A stretch of 64,000 bases of DNA, from positions 285 to 64,284 of the forward strand of contig JAUSKM010000015.1 of the NCBI GenBank assembly GCA_030646955.1. Direction: 5' to 3'. This document shows positions 3,226-24,176 of this stretch, one piece after another. The stretch comes from a bacterium (GTDB lineage Bacteria; Patescibacteriota; Patescibacteriia; JACPHY01). Each line of letters starts with the position of its first letter. The stretch's first letter is position 1. A program made the position numbers and the translations under genes. The notes beneath the pieces were generated by a model, which saw nothing but the letters and a program-made list of their open reading frames with translations, did not search any database and was not told the origin of the DNA.

Positions 3226-5157
3226 TCACCGCTTGAGCACGGCGATGTAGGCCTCCGGGGGGAGGTCAACACGGCCGGTGGCGCGCATGGCTTTCTTGCC
3301 TTTCTTCTGCTTCTCCAGGAGCTTCTTCTTGCGCGTAACGTCGCCGCCGTAGAGACCGGCAGTGACGTCCTTGCGGAGCGGCGAGATGCGGGCGCTGGCG
3401 ACAATCTTGCCACCGATCGCCGCCTGAATGCGCACCTCAAACTGGTGGCGCGGGATCACGTCCTTGAGCCGCTCGACGATCCGCCGCCCCACCTGCTGCG
3501 CTTCGTCCTCGTACACAATTGTCGCGAGCGATTCCTCTGGTTCGTCCACAACAAAAATGTCGAGGCGCCGCACGTTCGCCTCGCGGTGCTCGGAAATTTC
3601 GTAATTCATGGACGCGTACCCCTGGGAAACACTCTTGAGCCGATCATAAAAATCCACCAGCACCTTCGCAAGCGGCAGCTCGTACTTCAGGAGCGCGCGC
3701 CGTTGCCCCTCGATGCCGCCGGCAAGGTACTCCGTGGTGCGGTAGGTGCCGCGGTACTCCTGGCAGAGCTGCATGAGCCCGCCCACGTACTGCTCTGGCG
3801 TCACGATGTCCATGCGCACCCACGGCTCCTCAATTGCCGCGATGGACGACGGGTCCGGCAGCTCCTGCGGCGAACGGATGACTTCTCGCGCGCTGCTGTC
3901 CGCTTGGTGTTGCCGGCGCACCCAGTATGCAACACTCGGCACCGTCACCACCACGTCCATGTTGTGCTCGCGGATAAGCCGCTCCCGGAACACGTCCAGG
4001 TGGAGGAGGCCCAAGAATCCGCAGCGGAACCCCACGCCCAGTGCCTGCGAATGCTCCGGCTCCGCGACAAGCGCAGCATCGTTGAGGCGTAGCTGATCAA
4101 TGGCATCACGGAGCTGTTCCGTTTCATCCGAGTTCTTGGGGAACACGCCAGCGAACACCATGGGCCGCACGTCCTTGTACCCGGGGAGCGGCGCGGTTGC
4201 CGCGTACTTCGCGCCCGTCATAGTATCGCCAACGCGCACGCTTCGGATGTCCTTGAGGCCCGTCACGATGTATCCGATCTCCCCCGGCCCCACCTCGTCC
4301 GTCGCATAGAGCTTGGGGTTAAACGATCCCACCTCGCTGGCCTCTACCACCGTACCGGTGGTGAAGAATTTGAGTTTATCACCGCGCGCAACCGATCCGT
4401 CCACCACGCGCACATACGCGATGACGCCCCGAAAATCGTCGTACACAGAATCAAAAATGAGTGCGCGCAATCTCCGATCCCCCACCTCATCTTGAGGGGG
4501 GGGCGTCCGCACGGGTGCCGGTACCCGCTCCACCACCGCGTCGAGCAACATCGCAACGCCCTCGCCCGTCTTTCCGGAGACGGCAAGAATCTCCTCACGC
4601 GCGCATCCCAACAGCTCCATGATTTCCTGCGCCGTGCGCTCAACGTCCGCCGCCGGCAGATCAATTTTGTTGATCGCCGGAATAATGACGAGGTCCTGCT
4701 CCATCGCCAAGTACAGGTTCGCAATCGTCTGCGCCTGCACACCCTGCGTCGCATCTACGAGCAGGATTGCTCCCTCCACTGCCGCAAGCGAACGCGAGAC
4801 CTCGTACGTGAAGTCCACATGCCCGGGCGTGTCGATGAGGTGGAATATGTACTCCTCCTGATGATCCCCCACCTCCCGCTCGTCTGCGTCCGCCGGAGCG
4901 CGGAGGGAGGAGGGGCGAGGGGGGGTGGGCGTCCGCATCGTTCCGCCATGCGCGCCCAGCGTCCATCGCATGCGGACTGGCGCCAGCTTGATCGTAATCC
5001 CCCGCTCCTGCTCCAGGTCCATCTGGTCCAGCGTTTGCTGCTTCATGTCCCGGCTACTCACCGTTCCCGTGAGCTCCAACATCCGGTCCGCCAGCGTGGA
5101 TTTGCCGTGGTCAATGTGGGCGATGATGCAAAAATTGCGAATGGATGATGATTCCAT
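3226..5157 (-). CDS. lepA: Elongation factor 4 (LepA)
   Basis: MESSSIRNFCIIAHIDHGKSTLADRMLE...DTPGHVDFTYEVSRSLAAVEGAILLVDA. The ORF track extends upstream to 5394 as non-coding read-through. The gene carries two in-frame GC-hairpin insertions (see repeats at 4488 and 4864). Confidence 0.9.
   Translation of the reverse strand: MESSSIRNFCIIAHIDHGKSTLADRMLELTGTVSSRDMKQQTLDQMDLEQERGITIKLAPVRMRWTLGAHGGTMRTPTPPRPSSLRAPADADEREVGDHQEEYIFHLIDTPGHVDFTYEVSRSLAAVEGAILLVDATQGVQAQTIANLYLAMEQDLVIIPAINKIDLPAADVERTAQEIMELLGCAREEILAVSGKTGEGVAMLLDAVVERVPAPVRTPPPQDEVGDRRLRALIFDSVYDDFRGVIAYVRVVDGSVARGDKLKFFTTGTVVEASEVGSFNPKLYATDEVGPGEIGYIVTGLKDIRSVRVGDTMTGAKYAATAPLPGYKDVRPMVFAGVFPKNSDETEQLRDAIDQLRLNDAALVAEPEHSQALGVGFRCGFLGLLHLDVFRERLIREHNMDVVVTVPSVAYWVRRQHQADSSAREVIRSPQELPDPSSIAAIEEPWVRMDIVTPEQYVGGLMQLCQEYRGTYRTTEYLAGGIEGQRRALLKYELPLAKVLVDFYDRLKSVSQGYASMNYEISEHREANVRRLDIFVVDEPEESLATIVYEDEAQQVGRRIVERLKDVIPRHQFEVRIQAAIGGKIVASARISPLRKDVTAGLYGGDVTRKKKLLEKQKKGKKAMRATGRVDLPPEAYIAVLKR
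4488..4514. repeat. Small GC hairpin (CCCCCACCTC...GAGGGGGGGG) inside lepA
   Basis: cccccacctcatcttgagggggggg. It encodes the extra segment APVRTPPPQDEVGD relative to the canonical LepA alignment. Confidence 0.4.
4864..4934. repeat. GC-rich hairpin element inserted in-frame in lepA
   Basis: atcccccacctcccgctcgtctgcgtccgccggagcgcggagggaggaggggcgagggggggtgggcg. It encodes an insertion of about 30 aa, GAHGGTMRTPTPPRPSSLRAPADADEREVGDHQ, between the conserved KLAPVRM and EYIFHLIDTPGHVDF segments. Confidence 0.6.
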
Positions 5158-5200: not shown

Positions 5201-6802
5201 TCACCCTCGCGCCTCGTCTGCGCCACCAAAGGCACGGGGGACGGCGCGGAGGGCGTGACGACGGAGCGCGAGCGCAAGCGCGGTAATTTCATCGGATTTG
5301 AGGAGGATACCAACGGCAAGGTACGCCCCGAAGCCCAGGCCCCCTGCCAGGAAACCCTGCAACGCGATGCCGATGAATGTCTGTGTCCCCACAAGCGCGG
5401 CGATGCTGGGCTTCACCACCTGGATGACCACGCCCATGACGAGTGCAGCGATGAGGAATTTCCCGATGGCGATACCCGTACGCCGTCCATCCAGCCCGCC
5501 GGCGCGGCGACGCAATGCGACGAGGAGCGCGAGCGCCTGGACGATACCCGCGAGCGCCAACGCCAACGCGAGGCCCTGCGGACCAAATGTGCGACCCAGG
5601 AACCACGCAGCCGCGATGCCGAGCACATCCGCCGCCACGCTGATGACGAACGGCGTGCGCGTGTCCTCGAAGGCGTAAAACGCACGCGTCAAAAGCGGGA
5701 TGAGCATCGCAAAAAAGAGTCCAACGCCAAACGCCTCCACCGTTTCCAATGTTCGAACCGTATCCTCCCATCCAAACGCGCCAGCACCCAGGAGCACGCG
5801 GACGATCTGCGCTTTGAGTGCCAAGAGCATCACGACAGCAGGCAGCGCGAGGAGCGCGATCTGTCGAAACGTCGCAGAGAAATACTGCCGGAACTGTTCG
5901 ATGTCACCAGCAGCAACTGCGCTCGACAAGCGCGGGAATGCGGCGATGGCGAACGCGATGCCAATGAGCGCGATCGGCACATGTTGGATGTTCGCCGCAA
6001 ACGTAAACACCGCGAGCGATCCCGCGGCGAGCGTGGACGCAATGCCGGCGACGATGAGCAGCTGCACCTGCTGCGCGCCAAGCGATGCGACACGCGGGAG
6101 AAGGTTCACAAACAACAATCGCACCTCGCGATCGCGCCACGTTGGCGCCCACTGTACCCGCAGCCCCGTACGCGCCGCAGCCACCCATTGCATCGCAAGG
6201 TGCGCGGCAGCACCCAGCACCACGCCCCACGCGATTCCTACCGGGCCGAGCATCGGCGCCAGCGCGAGGACGCCGCCGATGATGCCAAGATTGTAGAGGA
6301 GCGGTGCCGCCGCAAACGCGAAGAAGCGCTCCTCTGCCTGCAATACGCTACCAATGACAGATGAGAGGCCTAGGAGTGCCGTCGCGATGAACAGGATGCG
6401 GCCAACCTGCACGGTGAGCGCAAGCTGCTCCGACGAAAACCCAGGCGCAATAGCCGCAAAGAGCGGCGTCGCCGCAAGTGCGCCAATGCTCCCACACAGC
6501 AGGAGGAGAAACGCGGCATTGGTGAACACCTGCGAGGCGAAACGATGTGCGCGGTCACGCCCACCCGCGCGCAGCCGAATAAAAATCGGCACGAACGCCG
6601 CGGAGAGCGCGGCGAGGCCAAGGAGGTTGAAGGCAAAATCCGGGATGCGGAATGCCGCGTAGTACGCGTCGAGTACCGACCCCGCACCAAACGTGGTGGC
6701 GAGGATGCGATCGCGCACGAGTCCCAGGATGCGGCTCGCAAGCGAGAGCGCTGCAATGAGCAGCGCGGAAGCGACGGTGGTTTGTCCCAAGCGCATAGGC
6801 AA
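5201..6802 (-). CDS. murJ: Lipid II flippase MurJ (MviN family)
   Basis: 533-aa polytopic membrane protein. N-terminus LGLVRDRILATTFGAGSVLDAYYAAFRIPDF is typical of MurJ. Confidence 0.85.
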   Translation of the reverse strand: MPMRLGQTTVASALLIAALSLASRILGLVRDRILATTFGAGSVLDAYYAAFRIPDFAFNLLGLAALSAAFVPIFIRLRAGGRDRAHRFASQVFTNAAFLLLLCGSIGALAATPLFAAIAPGFSSEQLALTVQVGRILFIATALLGLSSVIGSVLQAEERFFAFAAAPLLYNLGIIGGVLALAPMLGPVGIAWGVVLGAAAHLAMQWVAAARTGLRVQWAPTWRDREVRLLFVNLLPRVASLGAQQVQLLIVAGIASTLAAGSLAVFTFAANIQHVPIALIGIAFAIAAFPRLSSAVAAGDIEQFRQYFSATFRQIALLALPAVVMLLALKAQIVRVLLGAGAFGWEDTVRTLETVEAFGVGLFFAMLIPLLTRAFYAFEDTRTPFVISVAADVLGIAAAWFLGRTFGPQGLALALALAGIVQALALLVALRRRAGGLDGRRTGIAIGKFLIAALVMGVVIQVVKPSIAALVGTQTFIGIALQGFLAGGLGFGAYLAVGILLKSDEITALALALRRHALRAVPRAFGGADEARG

Positions 6803-6821
6803 CTCCCATTGTACCGCACAA

Positions 6822-6849
6822 CACGCATCCGGCCGAAGCCGGATGCGTG
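6822..6849. terminator. Stem-loop (11-bp stem, UUCG-type tetraloop) between hpf and murJ; possible attenuator/terminator
   Basis: acgcatccggc-ttcg-gccggatgcgt on the minus strand, downstream of the hpf stop. There is no clear U-tract. Confidence 0.3.
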
Positions 6850-6885
6850 TTTGATGTATTGAGCCAGAAGCTAGCAGCTCGCAGC

Positions 6886-7260
6886 TTATGACGCTACTGC
6901 TTCCTCCGAAACACGCCGCGCGCTTGCTCCCGCGTGCATCCCCTGCATCGTACCGGCCACTCGGTGACGCTTGCGCATCTGAAGCACCAGTTTGTCCTTC
7001 GCGAGGTCAATCGCTTCGCGGAGCGTATGATCGTCCTCCTCCGCAAGCCACTTGTATGTATCAACCGTCAGCGTCAGGGATACCTTAAACGCCTTCTTCT
7101 TGGCAAAGCGCTCCGCCCGGAACGTCAGCAACGGCTCTTCTGTTCCTGCAGGGAGACGCAGCAACGCCCGCTCAATCGTCTTTGCCTTCACGACGAAATA
7201 CTGCCGGCAGAAATGCTGGTCAAACTCACCCACCTTCTTGTAGCTGTAGGAAACCTTCAT
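6886..7260 (-). CDS. hpf: Ribosome hibernation-promoting factor / RaiA (YfiA/HPF family)
   Basis: MKVSYSYKKVGEFDQH...EEDDHTLREAIDLAKDKLVLQMRKRHR has the HPF-like pattern (cf. E. coli ...QDMYAAIDGLIDKLARQLTKHKDK). Confidence 0.65.
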   Translation of the reverse strand: MKVSYSYKKVGEFDQHFCRQYFVVKAKTIERALLRLPAGTEEPLLTFRAERFAKKKAFKVSLTLTVDTYKWLAEEDDHTLREAIDLAKDKLVLQMRKRHRVAGTMQGMHAGASARRVSEEAVAS

Positions 7261-7422
7261 AGGATAGGCACTCATTACTACAGCGCGGGCCAGCCGTTTC
7301 TTTCATTTCCGCCGCCCGCGTCGCATGGACAACATACCCCGCCTGTGGAAAAACTGCAAGGAGGCCCCAAGATGCCAAAAATGGGGCGGTTCTGCGATGC
7401 CGATGATGCGGGAGGTACTTGC

Positions 7423-7815
7423 TCAATCATCAACGCGCGTATTGTTTCGTGTATCGCCGAGTACTCCGAGCGCCGCTGCTGCCATGAACAAACCAAAATC
7501 GCGCACGGCGAGATCCCCGCGTGCCACGGCAGCGAGAATGGTCAAAAGGTGAAGCGCGACAACCGCGGCAACGATACGCACTCGCCACCCCACCACCAGC
7601 AACACGCCGAGGAGCACCTCCGCCACACCCACCACGCGCAGGAACTGCACGGGATCCATCGGCAACAATCCGATCATCCACGGCGGAACAAATCCCAGCC
7701 ACGACACGGTATCTGCAATCTTGCCATATCCAAAGATGAGCAGCACTGCACCCAACCCCAAACGCAACAGCAATGCCGCAGCGCTGGGGCCCGTAAAACG
7801 AGAAAGCATCCTCAT
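7423..7815 (-). CDS. DoxX-family membrane protein
   Basis: MRMLSRFTGPSAAALLLRLGLGAVLLIFGYGKI... contains four hydrophobic helices. The upstream 55 codons of the track ORF are repeat-element sequence (HCEHAKQSHT). Confidence 0.6.
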   Translation of the reverse strand: MRMLSRFTGPSAAALLLRLGLGAVLLIFGYGKIADTVSWLGFVPPWMIGLLPMDPVQFLRVVGVAEVLLGVLLVVGWRVRIVAAVVALHLLTILAAVARGDLAVRDFGLFMAAAALGVLGDTRNNTRVDD

Positions 7816-7840
7816 ACTTTGACAATAAAATTGGTGCGTG

Positions 7841-7876
7841 TGAGATTGCTTCGCATGCTCGCAATGACAATACTTA
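7841..7876. repeat. MITE-like palindromic element (GTGAGATTGCTTCGC...CTCGCAATGACA)
   Basis: gtgagattgcttcgcatgctcgcaatgacaata. Same module as 9917..9947. Confidence 0.6.
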
Positions 7877-7924
7877 GGAATAAGTGGACTTAACATTTTC
7901 GACACCGTTTTCAAACACGGTCTC

Positions 7925-9187
7925 CTACGGCTTGTATAATTCATCGATGGCCGGCTCCCACACCGTGCAATGACTTGCACCGCCTATCGCGAACAGTTTT
8001 TTGTCGGGGTAGCGCTTTTTCAGCTCGCGAAACACATCGATTGCATGTTCGTCGCGAACAATATTCATGTCCCGCAAGACATCGCTGGTGACCCTTCGTT
8101 CACCGACCAACTGCGGCTCGGTCATTTCGATAATCCTGGCCCTATCTTCTTTCCTTAACTCCGGATCATCGAACCGTTTCACAAGCTCCGCCAAGGAGAA
8201 GCCCATATGCCTCTGCAGCGAGGCATCGATATTTTCATTCGTGAGTTCGATGCCTAAAGAAACTGCCTCTTCAACGCCGCCCCCCGACAAAGCAACACCA
8301 CTACGTCTGCGTATCTCGTCGGCGGAGGGCCTCACATTGGATTCATGGGGTTTATTTTCGTCATAGGATGCATGGGCCCTGCGTGCGGCATAGGTGACCA
8401 TCCAGTCGGTCACATCTTGTGGTCCGTATTTGTGCTCACCGGTGGTTTCATCTTTCAACTTAAGGACCTCGCGAATCTGCTCGATTGTACGCGTATCCCA
8501 AGTCCGGACCTCTTTCCCTTCCCGCATCGCCAATAAAGCAATGTACGGCTCCTCCCCTTTTTCCGCGATAACCCGCGCGGGATCTTTTTTCAGGATTTCG
8601 CTCAACGACTCCCCCGGGTAGAAGTCCTCAAGCGAAAGTCCGCCTTCGATCAGCACGATGTCCGGATCTTCTTGCATCAACGCATCGACCGTGGGTTGCA
8701 TCGGCTCAACTGTATTTGCGTGCGCAAAACCACGTCCAATGAACTCCGCACCGTTTTCGGAACGTTTCTTGATCTCGTTGATTTCCTTACCGCTTTCGCG
8801 GGCCGCCTTCTCTTCCTCCGGCGTCAAAAGAAGGAGATGCAATTTCTCGATCTCAAGTGCATCCAAGCGCGCGCCACGATTACGCTCCACACGCACTTGA
8901 TCGTCGACCATATGCCCGTGTATTGCCTGCTTGGATTCTTTACTAATAATTCCTAGTGCCGCCTCCAATCCATCCACTTCTCCCTGATAATCCTCTTCTA
9001 GTGTTGCGCGCATTTCAGATTCGTCTTTCGAGGAATCCGCAGCATGAGACAGAAGACGAATATCTTGATCGATTTTCGTGATCCGCTCCTTGCGCACCTG
9101 GGCAATGGTCTCCGGGGTTTTCGCTGCAACTTTTTCCGGAACAGCCCCCATCGAATCCATTTTCGGCAGTTCTTTTCCCGAGGACAT
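7925..9187 (-). CDS. TraB/GumN-family-like protein (erythromycin esterase/TraB superfamily), likely horizontally acquired
   Basis: 420 aa. Contains a GxxH-like N-terminal motif (IGRGFAHANT) and a C-terminal xFAIGGASHC motif resembling the TraB-family VGAAHL motif. GC content is about 50% against about 66% in flanks. Flanked by direct repeats of the DoxX 5' region. Confidence 0.4.
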   Translation of the reverse strand: MSSGKELPKMDSMGAVPEKVAAKTPETIAQVRKERITKIDQDIRLLSHAADSSKDESEMRATLEEDYQGEVDGLEAALGIISKESKQAIHGHMVDDQVRVERNRGARLDALEIEKLHLLLLTPEEEKAARESGKEINEIKKRSENGAEFIGRGFAHANTVEPMQPTVDALMQEDPDIVLIEGGLSLEDFYPGESLSEILKKDPARVIAEKGEEPYIALLAMREGKEVRTWDTRTIEQIREVLKLKDETTGEHKYGPQDVTDWMVTYAARRAHASYDENKPHESNVRPSADEIRRRSGVALSGGGVEEAVSLGIELTNENIDASLQRHMGFSLAELVKRFDDPELRKEDRARIIEMTEPQLVGERRVTSDVLRDMNIVRDEHAIDVFRELKKRYPDKKLFAIGGASHCTVWEPAIDELYKP

Positions 9188-9205
9188 AAAAATACAACAA
9201 CCGCA

Positions 9206-9286
9206 TCAAGTCCGTTTTTCTCTCGTGCACAAACGCAACAGAAACGCCGCGATCTCGGAGCCCGTAAAGCGAAAAAACATCCTCAT
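9206..9286 (-). pseudogene. Duplicated DoxX 5' fragment (26 codons then stop)
   Basis: The minus strand reads MRMFFRFTGSEIAAFLLRLCTREKRT*. About 80 bp (9232-9292) duplicates 7770-7830, including gcccgtaaaRcgaRaaaRcatcctcatactYtgacaat. Confidence 0.55.
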
Positions 9287-9414
9287 ACTCTGACAATCAT
9301 CTTCGTCACCGCGTCCTGAAATACGCGAAACGCCTTCCGCCACTCTTTCTTGTGCGTGTATTGATCGTCATTGCTGACACGTACGCAGTACTGACACCCA
9401 CACCAATGATACCA

Positions 9415-9867
9415 TCAGTGTGCCTTCGGGTACGCGCAGTTTACCATCCACTGCACCCCGAACCGATCCCGAACACTCCCGTAGTAGTCACCCCATGGCT
9501 GGTCTGCAATATCCATCTCCACCGTGCCGCCGTCTGCAAGCGCATGGAAGATGCGATCCGCCTCCTCCTTGCTGTCGGGATGAATGGAAATGTACGCGTT
9601 ATTTCCCTGCACCAACTTCTGCCCAAGCGACGGCAGCGTGTCCGAAGCCATGAGCTTATCGTCGCCAACTGGAAGGCAAATGTGCATCATCCCGTTCTCC
9701 TCCTCTTTGGGAATGTGTACGCCTTCCATCGGCATGTCCTTGAACCGCACCCTGGAGCTGAACTCCCCGCCAAAGATGGAACGGTAAAACGTGAACGCCT
9801 CCTCTGCATTCCCGGCAAAGTTGAGATACGTGTTGAGTTTTATATTCTCCATTTTTCCATCTGTCAT
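9415..9867 (-). CDS. VOC-superfamily protein, PhnB-like (3-demethylubiquinone-9 3-methyltransferase-like domain)
   Basis: MTDGKMENIKLNTYLNFAGNAEEAFTFYRSIFGGEF...MHICLPVGDDKLMASD...DRFGVQWMVN matches PhnB/glyoxalase-like proteins. The start codon overlaps the first bases of the repeat element. Confidence 0.6.
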   Translation of the reverse strand: MTDGKMENIKLNTYLNFAGNAEEAFTFYRSIFGGEFSSRVRFKDMPMEGVHIPKEEENGMMHICLPVGDDKLMASDTLPSLGQKLVQGNNAYISIHPDSKEEADRIFHALADGGTVEMDIADQPWGDYYGSVRDRFGVQWMVNCAYPKAH

Positions 9868-9947
9868 TTCGAACGCAGCGAGAAATCTCACACGATCCAA
9901 TAACTGCCGACACGCGAGATTGCTTCGCGGACTCGCAATGACAGTAC
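9864..9947. repeat. MITE-like palindromic elements (two modules)
   Basis: gtcatttcgaacgcagcgagaaatctcacacg ... gcgagattgcttcgcggactcgcaatgacag. Confidence 0.65.
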
Positions 9948-9977
9948 GTATGTGATGCCGTGAAATTGCAATCGTTA

Positions 9978-11294
9978 TCATCCTTCGTACGCCCGCTGCA
10001 GCTGCTCCACATCAAACTTCTTCATCGCGAGAAATGCCTTCGTCACACGCGCACGACGTTCTGGATCCTCATCGCGCATCATCGCGTCCATTGCCGTGGG
10101 CACGATCTGCCAGGAAACGCCGTACGTGTCCTTGAGCCATCCGCATTGCTCTGCTTCCGGCACGGCAGAGAGCCGCTCCCAAAAATAATCGATCTCCGCC
10201 TGCGTATCGCACCGTATCAGGAACGAGAATGCCTCATTGAACGTAAACGCATGCTTATGCGCGCTGTCCATCGCTATAAACTGCTGCCCTACCAACGCAA
10301 ACTCTCCGTACATCACCGTCCCCTCCTTATCCGGCGCAGCATTCGCACCGTACCTACTCATATCGCCCACCTTCGCATCGCGAAATACTGACGCATAGAA
10401 CCGCATCGCTTCCTCTGCTTTCCCGCACCGCTCTCCAACGAACAGAAGCGATGGGGTGATGCGCTGGATACTCTTGCGACCGTCCATGCATATGAGCTGC
10501 CACGAGAGGCCATACCGGTCTTGCACCCATCCGTACCGCGTACTGAACGGATATGCACCAAGCTCCATCAGTACTTTCCCGCCATCCGCAAGCTGCTCCC
10601 AGAGCGCGTCCACCTCCGCAGGCGTTGCGCACGCGACCATGAATGAGATTGCCGGAGTAAATTGGAAGTACGGCCCTGCGCTGATGCACATGAACTCCTG
10701 CCCCGAGAGCACAAAGGACACAACATCTACCGCGCCAGAAGGCGTCCCCTGCAACGTAGTTACATACTCCACGCGCGAATCCGGAAAAAGCGACGTGTAA
10801 AATTCCGCCGCCTCTCGCGCCTCCTTGTCGTACCAAAGGTGAGGCACAATTTTTTGCATAGTGGCAACCTCCACCGTGCCGCGCTCGACGTACCGCTTGA
10901 AATTGGTGAGGATCGCCTGCCAACCATCCCGCTGCATCTGCTCCGGATTCAGCGACTCCGGATCAAACGTCTCGGTCACGTATACGTGCTCCAGCATCTG
11001 CGTGAACGTCACGCGCACATGCCGACCGTCATCCATGTCGTACTCGATCAATGCATACTTGCGAACGGCAGCATGCGTTCCCGAAAAATCAAACCTTGCG
11101 CTGCCATCCTTTGCAGCCATCACCGTCGTAAATCGTCCACCCACACGTACATCATTCTCCGCCGACGGCGCCTCCTACTCATCCGACGCAAACGCCCAGC
11201 CGACAATGTGCTCCGACTGCGTAAAACACTCCCACACCCTCGCCATGGGAGCGCGCACATCCACGTCCACTGTGATTGGCTGTTGTTTGTTCAT
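9978..11294 (-). pseudogene. SRPBCC (AHSA1-like) + tandem PhnB/VOC-domain protein interrupted by an in-frame TAG at a conserved Trp position
   Basis: [76 protein letters not shown]... is in a single frame (RC of cta at 11175-11177). Homologues read ...FASDDWHAPYAENDLRVGG..., so TGG is replaced by TAG here. Confidence 0.55.
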
Positions 11295-11541
11295 GTGATT
11301 CTTCACTGTAGCAGCGCCATGATGACCTTTTCGTGAATTGAATTCATCCGACCATGTCAGCGTACCACAACGCAAAACGCCCCTGCTTTCGCTCATAATA
11401 CTCTTCCCTCGCAGAGCAACGAAAAACCTACCGCCATCAATGCATACGCAGGAACACCACGTGCACTGTACTGCATGTATACAAGGAAAGACCGCCCCAC
11501 GAAGGGCGGCCTTGTACCAACAACGGAGCACCGTACGTCGC

Positions 11542-12378
11542 TCAATCACCTGAGAGAAACTCGGCCCATGCCGCACACTCCTCGAGGTCGTCGGTATCGA
11601 TGAGGCGGTCGCAATCGTTGTCGACGTGATCATTGCACACCTCTTCATTGCACGCGGGATCGCAGGTGAGCAACGCTACAGGAGCATCACACTCCCAAAA
11701 CCCCTCCTGCAACAATCCGTCGTTCTCCCATATGCAGATCACGCCGATCCAATCACCGTCGTCCGTCACCCCGTCGCAGTCGTTGTCGACGCCATCGCAG
11801 ATTTCCATGGGACATGCTGCGGTCGAATCGAACACACAATCGCCATCATCCCAATCCACCATGCCATCGCAGTCGTTGTCGGCACGATCATGACACAACT
11901 CGACATTCTCCTCACAGGACGGACCTCCAGCGATAGGGAGCCCGCATGAGAGCGTTGTGTGTGGCACGCCCTCTGTACCGGGAGCCCCGCACGTACGCAG
12001 GCCTGCATTCACTGCATCCCAGTACTCCATGTAACACGCCTGCTCTTCCCAAGGACCATTGTCCGTGATACCGTCGCAGTCGTTATCGATACTATCGCAG
12101 CGCTCCTCAGAGCACTCGGTCGCGTCATCGCCGGAATCATCATCCGCGCTGACGGCATCATCGTCGGATGTGTCGCCGTCGTCGTTTGCGGTTGCTTGGG
12201 AGTCATCGTCGGTGATGACTCCATCGTCGTCCGCTGCCATCGTATCGTCATCGACGGAAGTTGCGACGCTATCATCGTCTCCAACCGGAAAACTTCCTTC
12301 CGGCATATCGCTCCCGCACGCCTGCACTGCCGTTATGAGCGCCGTGATCATGGAAAGAACCAACCATACGGTACGCAT
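11542..12378 (-). CDS. Secreted Cys/Asp-rich repeat protein (DNDCDG 'putative metal-binding' type repeats)
   Basis: Signal peptide MRTVWLVLSMITALITAVQAC. At least four repeats of C-x-D-x-DNDCDG-x-x-D(W) (CDSIDNDCDGITDNG, ADNDCDGMVDWDDGDC, CDGVDNDCDGVTDDGDW, VDNDCDRLIDTDD). Acidic low-complexity N-terminal region. Confidence 0.55.
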   Translation of the reverse strand: MRTVWLVLSMITALITAVQACGSDMPEGSFPVGDDDSVATSVDDDTMAADDDGVITDDDSQATANDDGDTSDDDAVSADDDSGDDATECSEERCDSIDNDCDGITDNGPWEEQACYMEYWDAVNAGLRTCGAPGTEGVPHTTLSCGLPIAGGPSCEENVELCHDRADNDCDGMVDWDDGDCVFDSTAACPMEICDGVDNDCDGVTDDGDWIGVICIWENDGLLQEGFWECDAPVALLTCDPACNEEVCNDHVDNDCDRLIDTDDLEECAAWAEFLSGD

Positions 12379-12591
12379 CCGCACCTCCTTCTTTGTTCCC
12401 CGCAAATATACATCCAAGCAGCCTCTCCGTCAAGTTCCCCAAAATATATTCACCAAAAAGCTAATCGTTCGACGTGTTTCCACGGATGTCAAAAACCCCA
12501 CCGAAGCAGCGAGGCCATTGACATCTCCGCATCGTGAACAATGCTAGAGCCGCGGTACAGGAACATCGATAATACATCCGACTCCCCACAA

Positions 12592-13260
12592 CTAAAACTT
12601 CCTGACCTTCATGATGCAAGCATCGTCCACGCCTCCCTTTGCGCTCGCATACATCGCGTAGAGAAAGGCATCTCGGTCGATTGCATGTTGGCCGCCGAAT
12701 TCCTCACCCCAATCGGGGTCGTTGACGTAGACATTCTCTTGATCGATGCCGGTCACGACATTGAAATGAATGCTGAATCTTGGCGGGAGGTCAGTATTGT
12801 GAAGAAACCAATGTGTGAGAGGAATAAATACGGGCCGCTCTTCGTTTACTTCCACTTCGATATCACTCATGAGCGGAACCCGCGGCGTGATAGTGCCGCC
12901 TGCATCCACAAATTGAAGAAAGTGATCGAGAGCGATCGGATCACATTCTCCTTTCATGAGCGGTTTGAGCGACCAGAGATACCTCTTGAGCTCATCCGTA
13001 TTCTTGAACGATGAAAAGAGCGAAAAAAGGGATGGGTGCATCGTAATAATCTCGACCGAAAAACCTCGCTTAAGCAAGTACGTTCCGACTTGCGGGGTAA
13101 CTGTCCCCCACGAGTACGTTCCGAGTTCCTTTTTCATCTCATCAAAGGAAAACGACACCTTGTAGTACGCAAGCAACATCGCAAGACATGCGGGACCACA
13201 ATCGCTGGATCCTTCAGCTTGTCGAACAAGAGGAACAGATAGTTTCGTCATACTACCCAC
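12592..13260 (-). CDS. Papain-fold peptidase C39-like domain protein
   Basis: QAEGSSDCGPACLAMLLAYYKVSF matches the C39 Q...CG.ACL.M..YY(G) catalytic Cys motif. A downstream H/D pair is present (HFNVVTGID...NDPDWG). GC content is about 45-50%. Confidence 0.55.
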   Translation of the reverse strand: MGSMTKLSVPLVRQAEGSSDCGPACLAMLLAYYKVSFSFDEMKKELGTYSWGTVTPQVGTYLLKRGFSVEIITMHPSLFSLFSSFKNTDELKRYLWSLKPLMKGECDPIALDHFLQFVDAGGTITPRVPLMSDIEVEVNEERPVFIPLTHWFLHNTDLPPRFSIHFNVVTGIDQENVYVNDPDWGEEFGGQHAIDRDAFLYAMYASAKGGVDDACIMKVRKF

Positions 13261-13417
13261 AGTCTACCAGTTCGAATCCCATCACGGGAGCAAACAAAAC
13301 CCCAGCATTGCTGCTGAGGATTTGTTGGCTCGGGCTCGTGGACCTTGATCGTCTTAACGGGTCAATTGCTCATTGGATTTCGAGAGGGCACGACTGACCA
13401 GAAATAATTAGGAAATC

Positions 13418-14095
13418 TCAAGGCAGATTGGACTCCCCCACTGCGACCAGCTTTCCATCCCGAAGATACACATGCAATGTCCAGTCTCGATGATCTTCCC
13501 AGGGGGCATAGGTTAGCACGGTGTAGCCATCGGACGCACTCGTTTTCACTGGTTCACCAAACGCTCGAAAAACAGTCACCGTATCGATTCCGACAACCTC
13601 CCCATGCGAACGCGGATCGGTAAACTTAATGAGTCGGGCACTCTTTTCATGCTGATTAGCCCGCTCTCGAAGATACTCCTTGGCATGGGAGCCACTCATC
13701 CAATACGCACGCTCCCAAAATGGAACCTGAATATGCTTTGTGACCTGTTCCCCACCTCGTCGAAGCGGATTGTCATCAATCTGTAAACGAAACTCTCGCA
13801 ACCATGGCGTCCAAACGACCATCCAAATAGTGAGCACGAACACAACGAATGCGGACGGGAGATACACAATCGCGACCGTTTTCGGCACCCGCTTCTTCAC
13901 CGTGAAAACCATGACCATGGTGAAGATGGCAACCGCGAGAATAACAGACAGCACAAGCATACCAACCTCAAACCCCACACCTCGACCCTCGAGTGCAGAA
14001 CTCCACCCCGCAAGAAAAGCACACGCGACCATGAAACCCGAGAATGCCGCCAGGAAAACCATGCAAACGCTCAACAAGTTTGGTTTTTTCATCAT
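13418..14095 (-). CDS. Hypothetical membrane protein (3 TM helices)
   Basis: 225 aa. N-terminal half has three long hydrophobic helices, followed by a soluble C-terminal domain. Low-GC DNA. Confidence 0.5.
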   Translation of the reverse strand: MMKKPNLLSVCMVFLAAFSGFMVACAFLAGWSSALEGRGVGFEVGMLVLSVILAVAIFTMVMVFTVKKRVPKTVAIVYLPSAFVVFVLTIWMVVWTPWLREFRLQIDDNPLRRGGEQVTKHIQVPFWERAYWMSGSHAKEYLRERANQHEKSARLIKFTDPRSHGEVVGIDTVTVFRAFGEPVKTSASDGYTVLTYAPWEDHRDWTLHVYLRDGKLVAVGESNLP

Positions 14096-14214
14096 AGCTT
14101 CGTGATACCTACCAAGAGGACGAAATGCTCAAGAATCGCAACGCTTCATCTTGACCGTTGTGCTCCCAAGTGTACCAAAAGTAATCGGACCACCCAAGGG
14201 TGATCCGATTACTT

Positions 14215-14285
14215 CTCGGGGACCTGGATTCGAACCAAGATAAACGGATTCAGAGTCCGTTGTCCTACCATTAGACGATCCCCGA
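14215..14285 (-). tRNA. tRNA-Gln (anticodon CUG)
   Basis: RC is TCGGGGATCGTCTAATGGTAGGACAACGGACTCTGAATCCGTTTATCTTGGTTCGAATCCAGGTCCCCGAG. It folds as a cloverleaf with acceptor TCGGGGA/TCCCCGA, anticodon loop CTCTGAA and T-loop TTCGAAT. Confidence 0.6.
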
Positions 14286-14368: not shown

Positions 14369-16171
14369 CTACTCCATAATGGGCGCGGCTGCGGTGCCTC
14401 GTGCCGGTTCGCTCGCTGCGATGACGCGGGAAGAAGCGAACACCTCCAGGGCGGCGTCAACGGTGGTGTCGCCGGTGGCGGGGCGGCAGGCGCGGTCGAG
14501 CTCTTCAAAGTGCTCCACCGCAATCGCGACGGGATCCAGGTGGAGGGGCGTGCCGACGATGCGTGCGATGGCGCTGGTGAGCGGCTCTATGATGCCGGGC
14601 TGCCGCACTTTCTCCGCGTGGAGCTTGTAGCGGAAGCCGATGGTGAGCGTCCCGTCTGCAATGCGTTGCGGGCGACCGCCTTCCAGGAGGTACGGGATGG
14701 AGCGGTTGACGTCCGCGAGATCGCGGATGATGTGGTGCCATTGTTGCTGGACTTTCGAGAGCGCCTCGGTGGCGCTCTGGATGACGGTGGATGTTGGAAG
14801 TTGCTCCCTCCTCCCGGCGGAAGGGGGAGGAATAAAACGCACCCCCTCTGACTCCCCCTCTTGAAGAGGGGGAGGAACCGGATCGGATGTATCTGTTACC
14901 GTCGTTGGGAGTTTGATGCTTGCAGGGGTACGAGCGCGCGAGGCGTGTTGGGGGGTACGGGCTGCACCGCCGGTGGTGGCGGGTGGAGCATCGTCGTCAT
15001 TGCTCCGCGATGCGTCTCGCTGAGACGAGGCGAGCTGCGCGGGATTCATTTTGCCTGGTGATGCGCTCGCTGCGGGCGCTGCGGGAACGAATGGGGAGCG
15101 CGCGAGGAGCGTAAGGACGGCAACCTCGAGGAGGAAGAACGGACGGTCTGCACGACCGATGCGATCCAGGAGTTCCGTGAACATGCGAAGCGCGAACACC
15201 TGTGCCGTCGCAACGGCACCTTGCTGGGCGGCAGCGCGTGCGGCGCTGCGCAGCTCGTTGATGATGTCGCGACAAAACGCATCCGCATCGCATCCCTCGG
15301 CTGATGCAGCATCGAGCGTGGCCAGGGCCAATGCGGTGTCGCCGGCACCAACCGCGCGAAGCAGCGTCTGGACATGCACCATGTTTGATTGCGGGAGCAC
15401 GAGCGCGGCAACATCGGCCGTCACTCGCTTCCCGCCCACCGCCATGAGCTGCCCCAACAGGGATTCTGCGTCACGCACGGAGCCGTCTGCCGCGCGGACT
15501 ACCTGCGCGAGCACCTCGTCATCCACGGCAACATCCTCTACCCCTGCAAGCATCCGGAGCCGCTCCGTGAGCGTCCCATCCCCCACGCGCCGGAACGTAA
15601 AATGCTGGCACCGTGACGTGATCGTCTCCGGCACCTTCTGCATTTCCGTTGTCGCAAGGATGAAGTGGACGTGCTCTGGCGGCTCCTCCAGCGTCTTGAG
15701 GAGCGCATTAAAGGACGCCGTCGAGAGCATGTGCACCTCGTCAATGATGTACACCTTCTTTGCTGCAACTGCGGGGGCGATACGCACCGCCTCGATGATG
15801 TACTCACGCACCTTCTCCACCTGCGTGTTGGATGCCGCATCAATCTCCACGACATCCATGCAACGTCCTGCGGTAATTTCCTCGCACCGGATGCAGGCGT
15901 TACAAGGCACGGGAAGTGTTTGCTTCGACCGGTGCTTCGCGCGAGTTTCTTCGTCGCTCCGCTCCTCGGAATGACGAGGAGCGAGGCAATTCACCGCCTT
16001 CGCCAGGAGCCGCGCGGTGGTGGTCTTTCCAACGCCGCGCGGACCGGAGAAAAGGTACGCATGCGCAACACGACCCGCCGCGATAGCCGCGACGAGCGTG
16101 CGCGTGACATGCTCCTGCCCCACGACGTCCTCAAACGTCTGCGGGCGATGCTTACGATACAGTACGGGCAT
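14369..16171 (-). CDS. dnaX: DNA polymerase III subunit gamma/tau
   Basis: MPVLYRKHRPQTFEDVVGQEHV...FSGPRGVGKTTTARLLAKAVNC...EIDAASNTQVE. Long A/P-rich C-terminal region. Contains two in-frame repeat insertions (15950 and 14803). Confidence 0.9.
   Translation of the reverse strand: MPVLYRKHRPQTFEDVVGQEHVTRTLVAAIAAGRVAHAYLFSGPRGVGKTTTARLLAKAVNCLAPRHSEERSDEETRAKHRSKQTLPVPCNACIRCEEITAGRCMDVVEIDAASNTQVEKVREYIIEAVRIAPAVAAKKVYIIDEVHMLSTASFNALLKTLEEPPEHVHFILATTEMQKVPETITSRCQHFTFRRVGDGTLTERLRMLAGVEDVAVDDEVLAQVVRAADGSVRDAESLLGQLMAVGGKRVTADVAALVLPQSNMVHVQTLLRAVGAGDTALALATLDAASAEGCDADAFCRDIINELRSAARAAAQQGAVATAQVFALRMFTELLDRIGRADRPFFLLEVAVLTLLARSPFVPAAPAASASPGKMNPAQLASSQRDASRSNDDDAPPATTGGAARTPQHASRARTPASIKLPTTVTDTSDPVPPPLQEGESEGVRFIPPPSAGRREQLPTSTVIQSATEALSKVQQQWHHIIRDLADVNRSIPYLLEGGRPQRIADGTLTIGFRYKLHAEKVRQPGIIEPLTSAIARIVGTPLHLDPVAIAVEHFEELDRACRPATGDTTVDAALEVFASSRVIAASEPARGTAAAPIME
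14803..14878. repeat. Pair of GC-rich hairpins inside dnaX linker region
   Basis: ctccctcctcccggcggaagggggagg and ccccctcttgaagagggggagg. They encode ...DPVPPPLQEGESEGVRFIPPPSAGRRE.... Confidence 0.55.
15950..15992. repeat. MITE-like element module inserted in-frame in dnaX AAA+ domain
   Basis: ttcgtcgctccgctcctcggaatgacgaggagcgaggcaattc. It encodes APRHSEERSDEETRAKHRS between the conserved AKAVNC and PCNACIRC segments (E. coli has NCETGITATPCGVCDNC). Confidence 0.6.
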
Positions 16172-20342: not shown

Positions 20343-20359
20343 GCGTACGAGCGCGATGC

Positions 20360-20809
20360 TTACTTCTGCTTCCGGGCGAGCGCGAGGATTGCGTCGGTCT
20401 TCACCTTTGCTTCTTGCGTAAGAAACCACCGGTTGAGCCGCGGGATGACGTGCAGCCATCGAACGATGTCTCCGTGCGCTTCCCGCACATCCACCGGACC
20501 ACGCACGAACATGGCTTCAAGGCGTTCTGCAAGACGGCTGGCAGCGCCACGGAATGCTTGCTGCACCTGCGGGTCCAAACCCATGTAGAGCGCCTTGAGC
20601 TGCTCATCTGCCAATGCAATCTCAATGTCTTCACGCAATGGTGATTTCTGCACGCGCGGCGCCGCCGAGGATTGCGGAATCGACGCGCGCGCTGCAGGCG
20701 ACGCGCTGGCACGCTCCGGCGCTGCCGGGCGTTGCTCGAGCTGTTCCGTGATGCGCGCGAGGGTGCGCGGCTGCTCGACAATCGGTTGTTCCGGTGATCC
20801 GAGCGGCAT
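20360..20809 (-). CDS. Hypothetical protein upstream of T4CP-like gene
   Basis: 149-aa ORF ending 18 bp before the T4CP-like start. No recognisable motifs. Confidence 0.45.
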   Translation of the reverse strand: MPLGSPEQPIVEQPRTLARITEQLEQRPAAPERASASPAARASIPQSSAAPRVQKSPLREDIEIALADEQLKALYMGLDPQVQQAFRGAASRLAERLEAMFVRGPVDVREAHGDIVRWLHVIPRLNRWFLTQEAKVKTDAILALARKQK

Positions 20810-20866
20810 AGCGACGATATTCGTGCTTCCAGTATACCACTTTGGTATGCATCCCGACGACCCCGC

Positions 20867-22306
20867 CTATGCCCCCCCTCGAACCTTCGGCCCGTCTTGC
20901 GTATCTTCAACGGTGTACCCCAGCGCGGCAATCTGCGCGCGGAGACGATCAGCGCGTGCCCAATCCTTCTCGGTGCGTGCGTGCTCTCGCGCACGCACGA
21001 GCTCCAGCACCTCCGGCGGAACGACGAATGGTTTACCCAAAACGTCGCGCAGCCCTAGTGCAAATACCTCATCCGCATACGCAACGAACGCGCTCTGCTC
21101 CACGGTTCGCTCGCTCTTCTTGAGGCATTCCCAGAGCAACGCGAGCGCTTTTGGCGTGTCGAGATCGTCGTTCATGGCATCCAAGAACCGCTCGGTGGTC
21201 TTGTGCACCTTCACCTTCAGCTGCGCGCTCACGCGTACCGGCGGCTTGGGGAATTCGCGGCACTGTGTTCGCAGATGCTCCAGCGCATGCTGCGCAGCGG
21301 TGAGGGATTCCCAGGTAAAGTTGAGCGGCGAACGGTAGTGCGCGCCCAGCACCAAATACCGATATGCAAGCGGATCAATCCCCCGCTCAATCAACTGCGT
21401 GATGGTAATGAGGTTCCCCTCGGACTTCCCCATGCGCTTGCCGTCCACGGTCAGGAATGCGCCATGGAGCCAATACGCTGCGAGCGGCTTCCCGTACGCC
21501 GCTTCGGACTGCGCAATCTCGTTCGTGTGATGGACGGGAATGTGATCAATCCCGCCCGTGTGGATATCAAACGGCTGCCCCAACAGCTCACGGCTCATGA
21601 CGGAGCACTCCAAATGCCACCCGGGGAACCCTGTCCCCCACGGCGATTCCCACTCCTGCTGACGTTTCCTCTGTTCCCCCCCCTCCCGCTGGAAGGGGGG
21701 GCTGGGGGGGGTAGGGTTTGAAAGTTTCCACAGCGCGAAATCGTGCGGCAATCGCTTCTCGCCCACCGCAACGCGCATACCGCCCGCCTTCTCCTCCAGC
21801 TTCTGACCGCGGAACGCCGTGCCGTAGGACGCGAGCTTCGCGGTGTCAAAATACACACCGTCCGATGTCGTATAGGTGTACCCCTGCTTCTCCAAACGCT
21901 CTACCAGCGCAATCTGCTGCGCGATGTACTCCGTTGCCTTGGGCATCGCGTCTGGTGTGAGGATGTGCAGCCGCTCAAGGTCCTGCAGGAATGCCTGCGT
22001 GTAAAAATCCGCCAGTTCCCGCGCAGACTGCTTGCGCTGCGCAGCTGCGCGTTCCAATTTATCCTCGCCGGTATCCGCGTCGCCCACGAGATGTCCTACG
22101 TCCGTAATGTTCATGACGTGCTTCACCCGCAACCCATTGAGCAGGAGCGTCCGCCGAAGCACATCCGCAAACACGTACGACCGCAAATTCCCAACGTGCG
22201 CAAAATCGTACACCGTCGGCCCGCACGTGTACACGCGAACGCTCCGACCGCGCAGCGGCCGGAACGGTTCGATCGTCTTGGTGAGGGAGTTATGGAGCGC
22301 GAGCAT
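20867..22306 (-). CDS. cysS: Cysteine--tRNA ligase
   Basis: MLALHNSLTKTIEPFRP...VYTCGPTVYDFAHVGN...WESPWGTGFPGWHLECS...KMGKSEGN carries the HIGH/KMSKS-class motifs. Contains a GC-hairpin insertion. Confidence 0.9.
   Translation of the reverse strand: MLALHNSLTKTIEPFRPLRGRSVRVYTCGPTVYDFAHVGNLRSYVFADVLRRTLLLNGLRVKHVMNITDVGHLVGDADTGEDKLERAAAQRKQSARELADFYTQAFLQDLERLHILTPDAMPKATEYIAQQIALVERLEKQGYTYTTSDGVYFDTAKLASYGTAFRGQKLEEKAGGMRVAVGEKRLPHDFALWKLSNPTPPSPPFQREGGEQRKRQQEWESPWGTGFPGWHLECSVMSRELLGQPFDIHTGGIDHIPVHHTNEIAQSEAAYGKPLAAYWLHGAFLTVDGKRMGKSEGNLITITQLIERGIDPLAYRYLVLGAHYRSPLNFTWESLTAAQHALEHLRTQCREFPKPPVRVSAQLKVKVHKTTERFLDAMNDDLDTPKALALLWECLKKSERTVEQSAFVAYADEVFALGLRDVLGKPFVVPPEVLELVRAREHARTEKDWARADRLRAQIAALGYTVEDTQDGPKVRGGA
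21674..21712. repeat. GC-rich hairpin inserted in-frame in cysS
   Basis: ttccccccccctcccgctggaagggggggctgggggggg. It encodes the extra NPTPPSPPFQREGGEQRKRQQE preceding the conserved WESPWG. Confidence 0.55.
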
Positions 22307-23927: not shown

Positions 23928-24176
23928 TCCTAGCTGCTCCACGCGAGATCCCTGGACGATCCTCGGAATGACGAGGAAAGGAAACTCTGTATGACGGGAG
24001 ATTAAAAGGGGGACCTCTGCAAAAGTTGTGTTATTGCGAGCCGAACCCGTGAAGCGTGGCAATCCCGGCGTTAGGTTGACCGAGATTGCGGAGCCTGTCC
24101 CGAGTACGCGATGGATCCGCGTGTGTGACTCCTCACCATGACACCGTAGGGTTTTTTGGAGGTCTCAAGGGACAAT

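Follow-up and report, generated by a model that had tools for sequence, protein, structure and literature searches.

Integrative genomic and pathogenicity islands linked to tRNA genes lie 3' of the tRNA gene, have a lower GC content and carry accessory cargo that is missing from relatives. Integrases target tRNAs, and hotspots that are flanked by core genes and lack mobility genes have been linked to homologous recombination (PMC5635113). Oliveira et al. (2017, PMC5635113) defined such hotspots in species pangenomes and measured recombination in the core genes beside them. We have analyzed a stretch of 64,000 nucleotides (the window) from a metagenome-assembled genome (MAG) of an unclassified member of the Patescibacteria near Candidatus Uhrbacteria, in which a low-GC slot lies between dnaX-tRNA-Gln and hpf (Table 1). 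The slot probably belongs to this already known kind of hotspot: it is an accessory cluster between core genes, its content varies by genome, it has a tRNA gene at its edge, it contains no integrase, transposase, phage or conjugation genes, and gene turnover and decay are visible in it. Unlike in the study of Oliveira et al., the comparison here covers five genomes that diverge roughly at the level of families, the host is a Patescibacteria MAG with a small genome, and recombination in the flanks is something we infer. With tRNA-linked islands, the slot shares its position directly 3' of the tRNA, a GC content below that of the genome and cargo missing from the relatives examined, but it differs from them in having no integrase, no direct repeats of the tRNA 3' end and no mobility genes, and in a mosaic composition that indicates several events.

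Table 1. Features of the slot and its borders (positions in the window)
Feature	Coordinates	Strand	Evidence
hpf-like (S30AE family), left-side conserved backbone	6886..7275	-	weak Pfam match
DoxX-family membrane protein	7423..7815	-	Pfam DoxX 1.6e-8
REP-like element between TraB-like gene and DoxX	7842..7876	-	repeat D8; motif matches
420-aa protein, TraB/TIKI/EreA/ChaN-type fold, long helical N-terminus	7925..9187	-	
Relic of DoxX 5' end	9230..9306	-	direct repeat D3; pairwise alignment
PhnB/YjdN-like single-domain VOC protein, 145 aa	9415..9852	-	Pfam PF06983 and PF00903
REP-like element(s) between 2xVOC and PhnB-like genes	9862..9950	-	repeats D8 and I1
SRPBCC(AHSA1)+2xVOC(PF06983) gene with in-frame TAG	9978..11294	-	Pfam 2e-79; translation
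Cys/Asp-rich secreted protein, DNDCDG repeats	11542..12378	-	Pfam PF11617 1e-11 (Cu-binding_MopE)
Sigma-70-like promoter match upstream of MopE-motif gene	12405..12433	-	TTGACG-17-TATATT, 10/12 consensus positions
Stand-alone C39-like cysteine peptidase, 219 aa	12592..13251	-	Pfam Peptidase_C39_2 3e-13, Peptidase_C39 1e-11
Terminator-like hairpin between 3-TM and C39 genes	13300..13319	-	consensus scan
225-aa protein, three hydrophobic segments (3-TM)	13418..14095	-	ORF and translation
Terminator-like imperfect hairpin from tRNA 3' end, then TTTTGG	14166..14227	-	inverted repeat I2
tRNA-Gln(CTG), backbone part	14215..14285	-	ARAGORN; Rfam 63 bits
dnaX (DNA polymerase III gamma/tau), right-side conserved backbone	14369..16171	-	Pfam DNA_pol3_delta2 1e-38; NCBI MDO8425138.1

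A sequence-only reading had proposed 7830-14110 as a lower-GC accessory island, horizontally acquired and integrated at or near the tRNA gene. The GC drop over these 6.3 kb is real and highly significant, and the whole window has its lowest GC here (0.532, against 62.3% elsewhere). Outside the slot, 44,501 windows of the same size gave a mean of 0.623 (sd 0.017, minimum 0.589), and the lowest-GC 6281-nt window overall starts at 7812, close to the proposed start. The drop had been put at 45-57%, of which the lower figure is slightly too low: 400-nt windows go down to 0.48-0.49 (at 7801-8200 and 12801-13400), with flanks at 0.60-0.67. The mean GC3 of the six cargo genes was 0.62, against ~0.73 in the remaining 31 genes or long ORFs (p=1.7e-4 for GC3 and p=1.7e-6 for GC by the Mann-Whitney test), and it varied by gene from 0.55 to 0.72, giving the slot a mosaic base composition. 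The deviation seen in windowed GC did not extend to the tetranucleotide signature corrected for base composition, which was no outlier (correlation 0.77-0.86 inside; outside mean 0.87, minimum 0.69).

All six cargo genes are present roughly as first described. The 420-aa protein had been called TraB/GumN-like, which holds at the level of the fold only; it matched neither the Pfam TraB/GumN model nor any other profile. It also matches 2rad (‘succinoglycan biosynthesis protein’), HopBA1, EreC and ChaN. Its fold resembles that of the TIKI/TraB/PrgY/GumN - erythromycin esterase - ChaN superfamily (PMC6254334), from which it differs by a helical N-terminal extension of ~120 residues, in place of which some homologues have a Cys-rich N-terminus. 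The family is very small, with only 8 clusters in 5.8e9, and has invariant His and Glu residues. The PhnB-like VOC protein is borne out by its domains, with an NCBIfam YjdN match (2e-18) under the model cut-off. The SRPBCC+2xVOC gene does carry the internal TAG, at 11175-11177, where the fused homologues aligned at that column have a conserved Trp; the 2xVOC part may still be made from Met146, and the NCBI annotation places a 293-aa VOC protein (P0287) at this gene.

Regarding the other cargo, the Cys/Asp-rich protein (NCBI name ‘MopE-related protein’) has the predicted secretion feature, a signal-like segment at its N-terminus, and is possibly a lipoprotein. Its DNDCDG repeats are a putative MopE-type metal-binding motif, and the gene holds the internal direct repeats D1, D2 and D6. 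Pfam also agrees with the C39-like assignment of the peptidase, in which C18, H162 and D178 are invariant across 24 homologues. Like known stand-alone C39-like peptidases (Pfam PF13529/PF03412; YvpB-like), it has a papain-like C39 domain with conserved Cys/His/Asp, ~220 aa and no transporter fusion; it is neither fused to nor beside an ABC exporter, and no double-glycine precursor was seen near the gene. This is the lowest-GC cargo gene (GC 0.492, GC3 0.55); its closest homologues among those found show 51-53% identity and come from contigs of 40-42% GC, where the genes next to them are unrelated. The three hydrophobic segments of the 3-TM protein are evident in the translation; the gene has a GC of 0.518 and a GC3 of 0.55, and the protein had no match in Pfam, NCBIfam, PHROGs or PADLOC and no viral relative.

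The dnaX orthologues adjoin tRNA-Gln in all relatives examined, and the same tRNA follows dnaX in L083, L084, L086, L087, L088, L089 and L091. The order dnaX-tRNA-Gln-[slot]-hpf-murJ-lepA is kept in four of them (L083, L086, L089 and L091), where the hpf orthologues are 67-76% identical and adjoin murJ. Between tRNA-Gln and hpf each of these relatives carries different genes: HAD and Rce1-like in L083; rhomboid, a 576-aa protein, BNR/CARDB, two DoxX, a 73-aa ORF and zf in L086; HD in L089; and rhomboid in L091. In the relatives, inspection covered the DNA up to 10 kb from dnaX and found none of the six cargo genes there; other parts of those genomes could carry them. The nearest relative, L083, is colinear over ~24 kb of backbone and differs only by the slot and one CorA gene. 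Its tRNA-adjoining gene is also low in GC (0.455 vs 0.63-0.68 in the backbone). Further variable sites lie near the slot in L089 and L091. As these relatives are distant, with 65-77% identity in LepA, the slot differences could reflect slow long-term gain and loss instead of a true hotspot. The observations that had been named as contradicting the island were a uniform composition and the same genes in all relatives; we found a non-uniform composition and genes that are not common to all of them.

The DNA of the TraB-like gene is 82-83% identical to copies in unrelated contexts in L092 and L095, the latter a 47%-GC contig with the copy near dnaA/dnaN, whereas the DNA of the backbone genes is 71-78% identical to that of L083, in every case below this value. 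The GC3 of the TraB-like gene follows that of the respective host (0.36 to 0.78) but lags here (0.61 vs ~0.73). Since identity across genomic contexts exceeds backbone identity to the nearest relative, the TraB-like gene is probably a recent horizontal arrival, and at least one cargo gene has probably been so transferred. Just upstream of it lies the DoxX relic, ~25 nt of upstream sequence and the first 19 codons, 78% identical. The DoxX gene itself, outside the proposed island, has an intermediate GC (0.59) and is 53-57% identical to DoxX1 of L086, which occupies the same side of the slot, separated from hpf by two small genes; the DoxX gene seems to have been in the slot for longer. For the C39, MopE-motif, 3-TM and PhnB genes, transfer rests on composition and on absence from the slots of the relatives.

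Could these genes instead be native, passed down vertically here and lost in the relatives, with a GC that fell through weak selection or AT-biased mutation because they are accessory and poorly expressed? The unremarkable GC-normalised tetranucleotide signature would fit, as would the DoxX gene in common with L086 on the hpf side, the GC of hpf itself, lower than that of its neighbours in all genomes compared, and the host-type REP-like elements inside the region. These elements had been described as punctuating the island; they do occur in it, but the same family is spread over the whole window (16 matches vs 2.2 expected). Such an origin is hard to reconcile with the cross-context identity and tiny family of the TraB-like gene, with the absence of six of six genes near dnaX in every relative, or with the 2xVOC part, which has 63-69% protein identity to proteins source-named Armatimonadota, Terriglobia, Chloroflexi and archaea, above the ~55% of LepA to other Patescibacteria classes. 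We consider it unlikely. An assembly or binning artefact, in which a lower-GC fragment of another organism was joined into the contig, is far less probable still. The source is a MAG, contigs from metagenomes may be chimeric where repeats occur, and one Logan contig does break in the REP-like element at ~9872-9914. Against this, the Logan contig L082, a separate assembly, is 100% identical to 6613-9872 and joins the high-GC murJ/hpf backbone to the low-GC TraB-like gene, while L081 encodes the 3-TM, C39, MopE-motif and 2xVOC proteins at 100% identity and, by its gene coordinates, begins within the tRNA gene, ~150 nt upstream of 3-TM; both assemblies probably derive from the same reads, so this agreement is not fully independent. 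The REP-like family, common to the inside and the outside of the region, also speaks against an artefact.

A decayed classical island, that is, a single integrase insertion at the 3' end of tRNA-Gln followed by loss of the integrase and the distal att site and by reshuffling, seems improbable to us, marginally more so than native genes. The region does lie directly 3' of an intact tRNA, from which the 3-TM start codon is 119 nt away, and the genomes compared lose their similarity exactly at the 3' end of this tRNA; GC is atypical, one cargo gene is in decay, and tRNA genes are common integrase targets (PMC5635113). Nevertheless, domain profile searches of the region and its neighbourhood yielded neither an integrase nor a transposase domain, and the longest match of the region to the tRNA is a chance 10-mer of the T-arm. 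The imperfect hairpin at 14166..14227 (arms of 30 nt, complementarity 77%) resembles a terminator and is no att repeat. The region showed no similarity to phages, plasmids or defence systems, the homology that the TraB-like gene has to other contigs does not extend beyond a single ORF (7931-8864), and four relatives hold unrelated non-mobile genes at this site, without integrases. The mosaic composition, the terminator- and promoter-like sites between genes and the DoxX relic point to several separate events and not to one island. Of the original proposal, the accessory nature of the region stands, as does the probable horizontal acquisition of at least a part, whereas site-specific integration at the tRNA is not supported.

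We favor, with somewhat better than even confidence, an integrase-free hotspot of gene turnover between dnaX-tRNA-Gln and hpf-murJ-lepA, filled piecemeal. The slot would have received single genes or small blocks on several independent occasions, the number and order of which we infer, from donors whose GC was lower or different. The 3-TM and C39 genes, the least adapted to host composition, would form one block; the MopE-motif gene would have arrived separately, and both VOC genes together. The TraB/TIKI-fold gene would be recent and may have disrupted or displaced a DoxX 5' end, next to an older DoxX gene adjoining hpf, while one cargo gene, with its TGG-to-TAG change in the SRPBCC domain, is already decaying. 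The genes may have been taken up as DNA and then inserted through homologous recombination of the conserved flanks, a route also proposed for hotspots without mobile elements (PMC5635113), or through illegitimate recombination. In this Patescibacteria genome, the region looks like a mosaic hotspot of horizontally acquired genes and not like a tRNA-integrated mobile element.

A windowed GC check confirmed the low-GC stretch that had been noticed in the sequence: the region 7830-14110 has a GC content of 0.532, while windows of the same size elsewhere average 0.623 (sd 0.017, minimum 0.589). The coordinates of that stretch also proved accurate, because the window-wide GC minimum begins at 7812. 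In the six cargo genes that lie within it, GC is reduced at all three codon positions, and GC3 is 0.62 as compared to ~0.73 for other genes (Mann-Whitney p=1.7e-4). GC3 is uneven from gene to gene, with values of 0.55 in both the C39 and the 3-TM genes, 0.58-0.61 in the TraB-like gene, 0.64 in the MopE-motif gene, 0.68 in the 2xVOC part (9978-11144) and 0.72 in the PhnB-like gene. The deviation did not extend to the GC-normalised tetranucleotide signature, which was not unusual in the region. Milder GC dips (0.53-0.57) are found at 22308-24062 and 18000-19000; one of them coincides in part with a 584-aa ORF that lacks a Pfam match and shares only 29% identity with the ORF at the equivalent place in the nearest relative.

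The genes of the locus are listed below. Their proteins carry accessions from MDO8425128 (LepA) to MDO8425138 (DnaX), and all genes around the slot, the interval between dnaX-tRNA-Gln and hpf-murJ-lepA, are oriented on the minus strand.

Features of the locus and copies of the dispersed repeat
Feature	Position	Strand	Remark
lepA	3226-5157	-	
murJ	5201-6802	-	
hpf-like	6886-7275	-	
DoxX	7423-7815	-	
420-aa orphan (TraB-like)	7925-9187	-	
PhnB/YjdN-like VOC	9415-9852	-	
SRPBCC+2xVOC	9978-11294	-	
MopE-motif Cys/Asp-rich protein	11542-12378	-	
C39-like peptidase	12592-13251	-	
3-TM protein	13418-14095	-	
tRNA-Gln(CTG)	14215-14285	-	119 nt from first cargo gene
dnaX	14369-16171	-	
REP-like copies	1175, 1256, 7858, 9932, 23962, 24829, 24849, 24951, 29847, 48113, 48232		cluster of three at 24829-24961

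When LepA was compared with the GTDB species representatives, identities did not exceed ~56% and the best ones were mostly from Patescibacteria. The murJ-lepA pairing is conserved, but the scan was uninformative on the slot. Closer relatives were reached via the homologues of DnaX, the best of which come from unclassified MAGs and Candidatus Uhrbacteria, and via the contigs that carry them. LepA has 643 aa here and 602 in the nearest relative; the apparent extra segment, seen in the translation, is a Pro/Arg/Asp-rich stretch in the GTPase domain (...GAHGGTMRTPTPPRPSSLRAPADADEREVGDHQEE...).

By comparing these contigs, we found a conserved backbone with the order cysS - VirD4-like - TPR - 26x-aa - dnaX - tRNA-Gln - [slot] - hpf - murJ - lepA - recJ. 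In every relative dnaX is followed by tRNA-Gln(CTG), at a spacing of ~40 to ~450 nt, and the 3' end of the tRNA is the point where DNA similarity between genomes stops. Hence hpf and dnaX are near neighbours in the relatives, and the interval between them is variable in five out of five genomes. In the nearest relative (contig L083, LepA 77% identical) the slot holds a HAD and an Rce1-like gene, in L089 an HD-domain gene, in L091 a rhomboid, and in L086 a rhomboid, a 576-aa gene, a BNR/CARDB gene, two DoxX genes, a 73-aa ORF and a zinc-finger protein. In this window its 6.9 kb are taken up by DoxX and the six cargo genes, and these six are missing from the 10 kb on either side of dnaX in all relatives examined. 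DoxX is the sole slot gene in common, and with L086 only. The gene adjoining the tRNA in L083 is likewise strongly low in GC (0.455). Turnover rates cannot be estimated from this set, because the genomes compared are only family-level relatives, none of them conspecific.

Outside the slot, the only other difference in gene content between the window and L083 over ~24 kb is a CorA gene between cysS and a 15x-aa gene (4326-5243 in L083, 461-1378 in L089), missing at ~20800-20880 of the window. Two genes from dnaX, an 845-aa ORF (17922-20459) encodes a homologue of VirD4/TrwB-like coupling proteins, 64-75% identical in L083, L089 and L091; because it keeps the same position in most relatives examined, it belongs to the backbone and is not part of a mobile element. 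Small genes of selfish-element type occur around the locus in other relatives: a GIY-YIG fragment between dnaX and tRNA-Gln (L088, 4956-5153), an IS200/IS605-type Y1 transposase after murJ (L086, 11329-12000) and a bAvd/23S-IVP-like gene before dnaX (L084, 9626-9976).

An assembly artefact appears unlikely. A separately assembled Logan contig (L082) is 100% identical to 6613-9872 and spans the left junction, and a second one (L081), which according to its gene coordinates begins inside the tRNA gene, encodes proteins 100% identical to the 3-TM, C39, MopE-motif and 2xVOC proteins of the window. The Logan and MAG assemblies probably share reads. Host-type REP-like elements also occur inside the region.

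The sequence-only reading had found the island consistent with horizontally acquired DNA integrated at or near a tRNA gene. With integrase-mediated tRNA islands the region does have in common the tRNA gene that marks one of its edges and the atypical GC (0.532 vs 0.623), but the recombinase, the att repeats and the mobility genes are absent. No recombinase or transposase domain was detected with Pfam, NCBIfam or PHROGs in the seven slot proteins or in the neighbours on either side. As for an attL/attR-type copy of the tRNA 3' end, the longest tRNA match in 6800-14100 is a 10-mer (GTTCGAATCC); blastn-short with the tRNA over the whole window gave chance 9-11-mers only, and a repeat finder returned no tRNA-end repeat. 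The slot proteins had no phage or defence-system match in PHROGs and PADLOC. Searches of plasmid and phage DNA gave nothing except weak similarity to conserved VOC coding sequence, and scans of viral contigs gave nothing for the TraB-like and 3-TM proteins and no close relatives for C39 (matches merely 22-37% identical over substantial alignment lengths). Rfam detected three tRNAs in the window and nothing else. Integration targeted to the tRNA was thus not borne out, the suggested search for an integrase or att-like repeats having come out negative. We did find a terminator-like hairpin after the tRNA, a second one between the 3-TM and C39 genes, and a promoter-like site upstream of the MopE-motif gene.

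Nor do repeats delimit the region, which they had been said to punctuate. The motif GTCATTGCGAG, with one mismatch allowed, has 16 matches in the window vs 2.2 expected, and it belongs to a dispersed REP-like family of ~35-45 nt (GTCATT[G/C]CGAG ... CGAAGCAATCYC) with copies also far from the region; as island boundaries these repeats were discarded, the family being spread across the whole window and even into dnaX. The copy in dnaX (GTCATTCCGAG..., 15940-15985) lies in frame and yields the insert 'LAPRHSEERSDEETRAKHRSKQTL' in a loop of variable sequence that has the conserved motifs NC and PCNAC on its two sides and carries other, longer inserts in L084, L086 and L091. A search of the L083 locus for the core motif of the family was negative, and no Rfam family matches the element. 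A different duplication lies just upstream of the TraB-like gene, where ~85 nt (the upstream region of DoxX and its first 19 codons) recur at 78% identity. This relic is probably a trace of the arrival of the TraB-like gene, which would have disrupted or displaced DoxX-related sequence. A simple replacement of one of two tandem DoxX genes maps poorly onto L086, as the orthologue there is DoxX1, the upstream one of the two copies.

Regarding the cargo, the 420-aa protein had been labelled TraB/GumN-like, and the label holds at the level of the fold but not of the profile. The protein has the parallel beta-sheet core with flanking helices and the structural similarity to members that characterise the TIKI/TraB/GumN - EreA - ChaN superfamily, while it lacks a match to the Pfam TraB/GumN model or to anything else in Pfam, NCBIfam, PHROG or PADLOC. 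With Pfam at E<=10, no relevant family appeared for any of ten members of its family, and a PDB profile search gave nothing significant. The superfamily, in which HopBA1 and ChaN have been placed, features a catalytic 2His/2Glu motif, and its mechanism has been tied to the erythromycin esterase family (PMC6254334). In our 10-sequence alignment E148, H156, E181, H381 and H406 are invariant and are candidates for such catalytic residues. Members of the family differ by a swap of the N-terminal module (residues 1-125 in the window protein), which is long and helical in the window protein, P0128, P0132 and P0133, and short and Cys-rich ('CxLCGYPSYTG.HGPHP') in P0129, P0130, P0131 and P0286. At the DNA level, homology with other contigs begins only downstream of this module.

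The family is small, with eight cluster representatives (its own cluster included) among 5.8 billion clusters, and the four homologue contigs inspected show four unrelated gene neighbourhoods. Over the conserved 900 nt, the DNA of the window copy matches the copy in L092 at 83% identity and that in L095, a 47%-GC contig where the gene lies near dnaA/dnaN, at 82%; for lepA, murJ, hpf and dnaX, identity to the nearest relative known is just 71-78%. GC3 of the gene tracks each host, from 0.36 to 0.78, and lags in the window at 0.61, as would be expected if the gene came fairly recently from a donor of lower GC. It is conceivable, though we consider it rather unlikely, that the gene stands for a rare family that moves as a single-gene cassette among small-genome bacteria of very different GC (38-66%), swapping its N-terminal module (coiled coil vs Cys-rich), that it encodes a hydrolase acting in inter-microbial or host-symbiont conflict, and that the tRNA-Gln slot is a landing pad, which DNA uptake may supply. 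If so, the slot would document ongoing integrase-free gene flow in Patescibacteria.

The internal TAG reported for the SRPBCC+2xVOC gene was confirmed at codon 40 (11175-11177), in frame and in a column that is Trp (ASDDW) in the fused homologues aligned there, so that a single TGG-to-TAG change cut the SRPBCC domain. TAG is not a recoded sense codon, since the dnaX and TraB-like reading frames terminate with it. The gene shares the domain order of SRPBCC + 2x PF06983 fusions (50-55% identical over 99% of the length), but its reading frame is interrupted. The 2xVOC part, annotated by NCBI as a 293-aa protein, has its initial Met at the position where very common stand-alone proteins of the same architecture (294 aa) begin. 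It is 63-69% identical to proteins named Armatimonadota, Terriglobia, Desulfomonile, Chloroflexi, Promethearchaeota and Methanomethylovorans, higher than the identity of LepA outside the lineage.

The peptidase matches C39 profiles above the curated thresholds (PF13529, 50.9 bits with a cut-off of 24; PF03412, 45.1 bits with a cut-off of 22), with Cys18, His162 and Asp178 invariant in 24 sequences. It is a stand-alone 219-aa domain flanked by the 3-TM and MopE-motif proteins, and its neighbourhood shows no association with an ABC exporter or a double-glycine leader substrate. The nearest homologues found (51-53% identical) lie among housekeeping genes in 40-42% GC contigs, and homologue neighbourhoods are unrelated. 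A metagenome scan with a 4-sequence C39 alignment gave two full-length homologues only, neither with 3-TM or MopE-motif neighbours; these neighbourhoods give no evidence of a conserved 3-TM + C39 + MopE-motif module.

According to these results, the region is best read as a gene-turnover hotspot without an integrase, set among conserved core genes and beside a tRNA. The earlier view of it as accessory and of horizontal origin stands, given the variable slot and the 82-83% DNA identity of the TraB-like gene elsewhere, and only the tRNA-targeted integration falls. The mosaic composition, the terminator- and promoter-like sites and the lack of a mobility signature favour a number of small events over the integration of a single element. 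In the class described by Oliveira et al. (PMC5635113), many hotspots are free of mobile elements and are associated with homologous recombination in the core genes on either side, which may also be the route by which this slot was filled. With those hotspots it has in common a core-delimited interval holding different genes in each genome, although the genomes compared here are not conspecific.

This class of hotspot is already known, and nothing in the region would surprise a specialist. It does bring a caution for annotation, as a low-GC segment adjacent to a tRNA need not be an integrated element. Functions specific to the lineage, at the cell surface or in conflict, may be sought in the small TraB/TIKI-fold family and in the stand-alone C39 peptidase, both of them candidates, and the locus is a concrete, well-delimited case of a reduced-genome Patescibacteria lineage acquiring foreign genes without recognisable mobile-element machinery.
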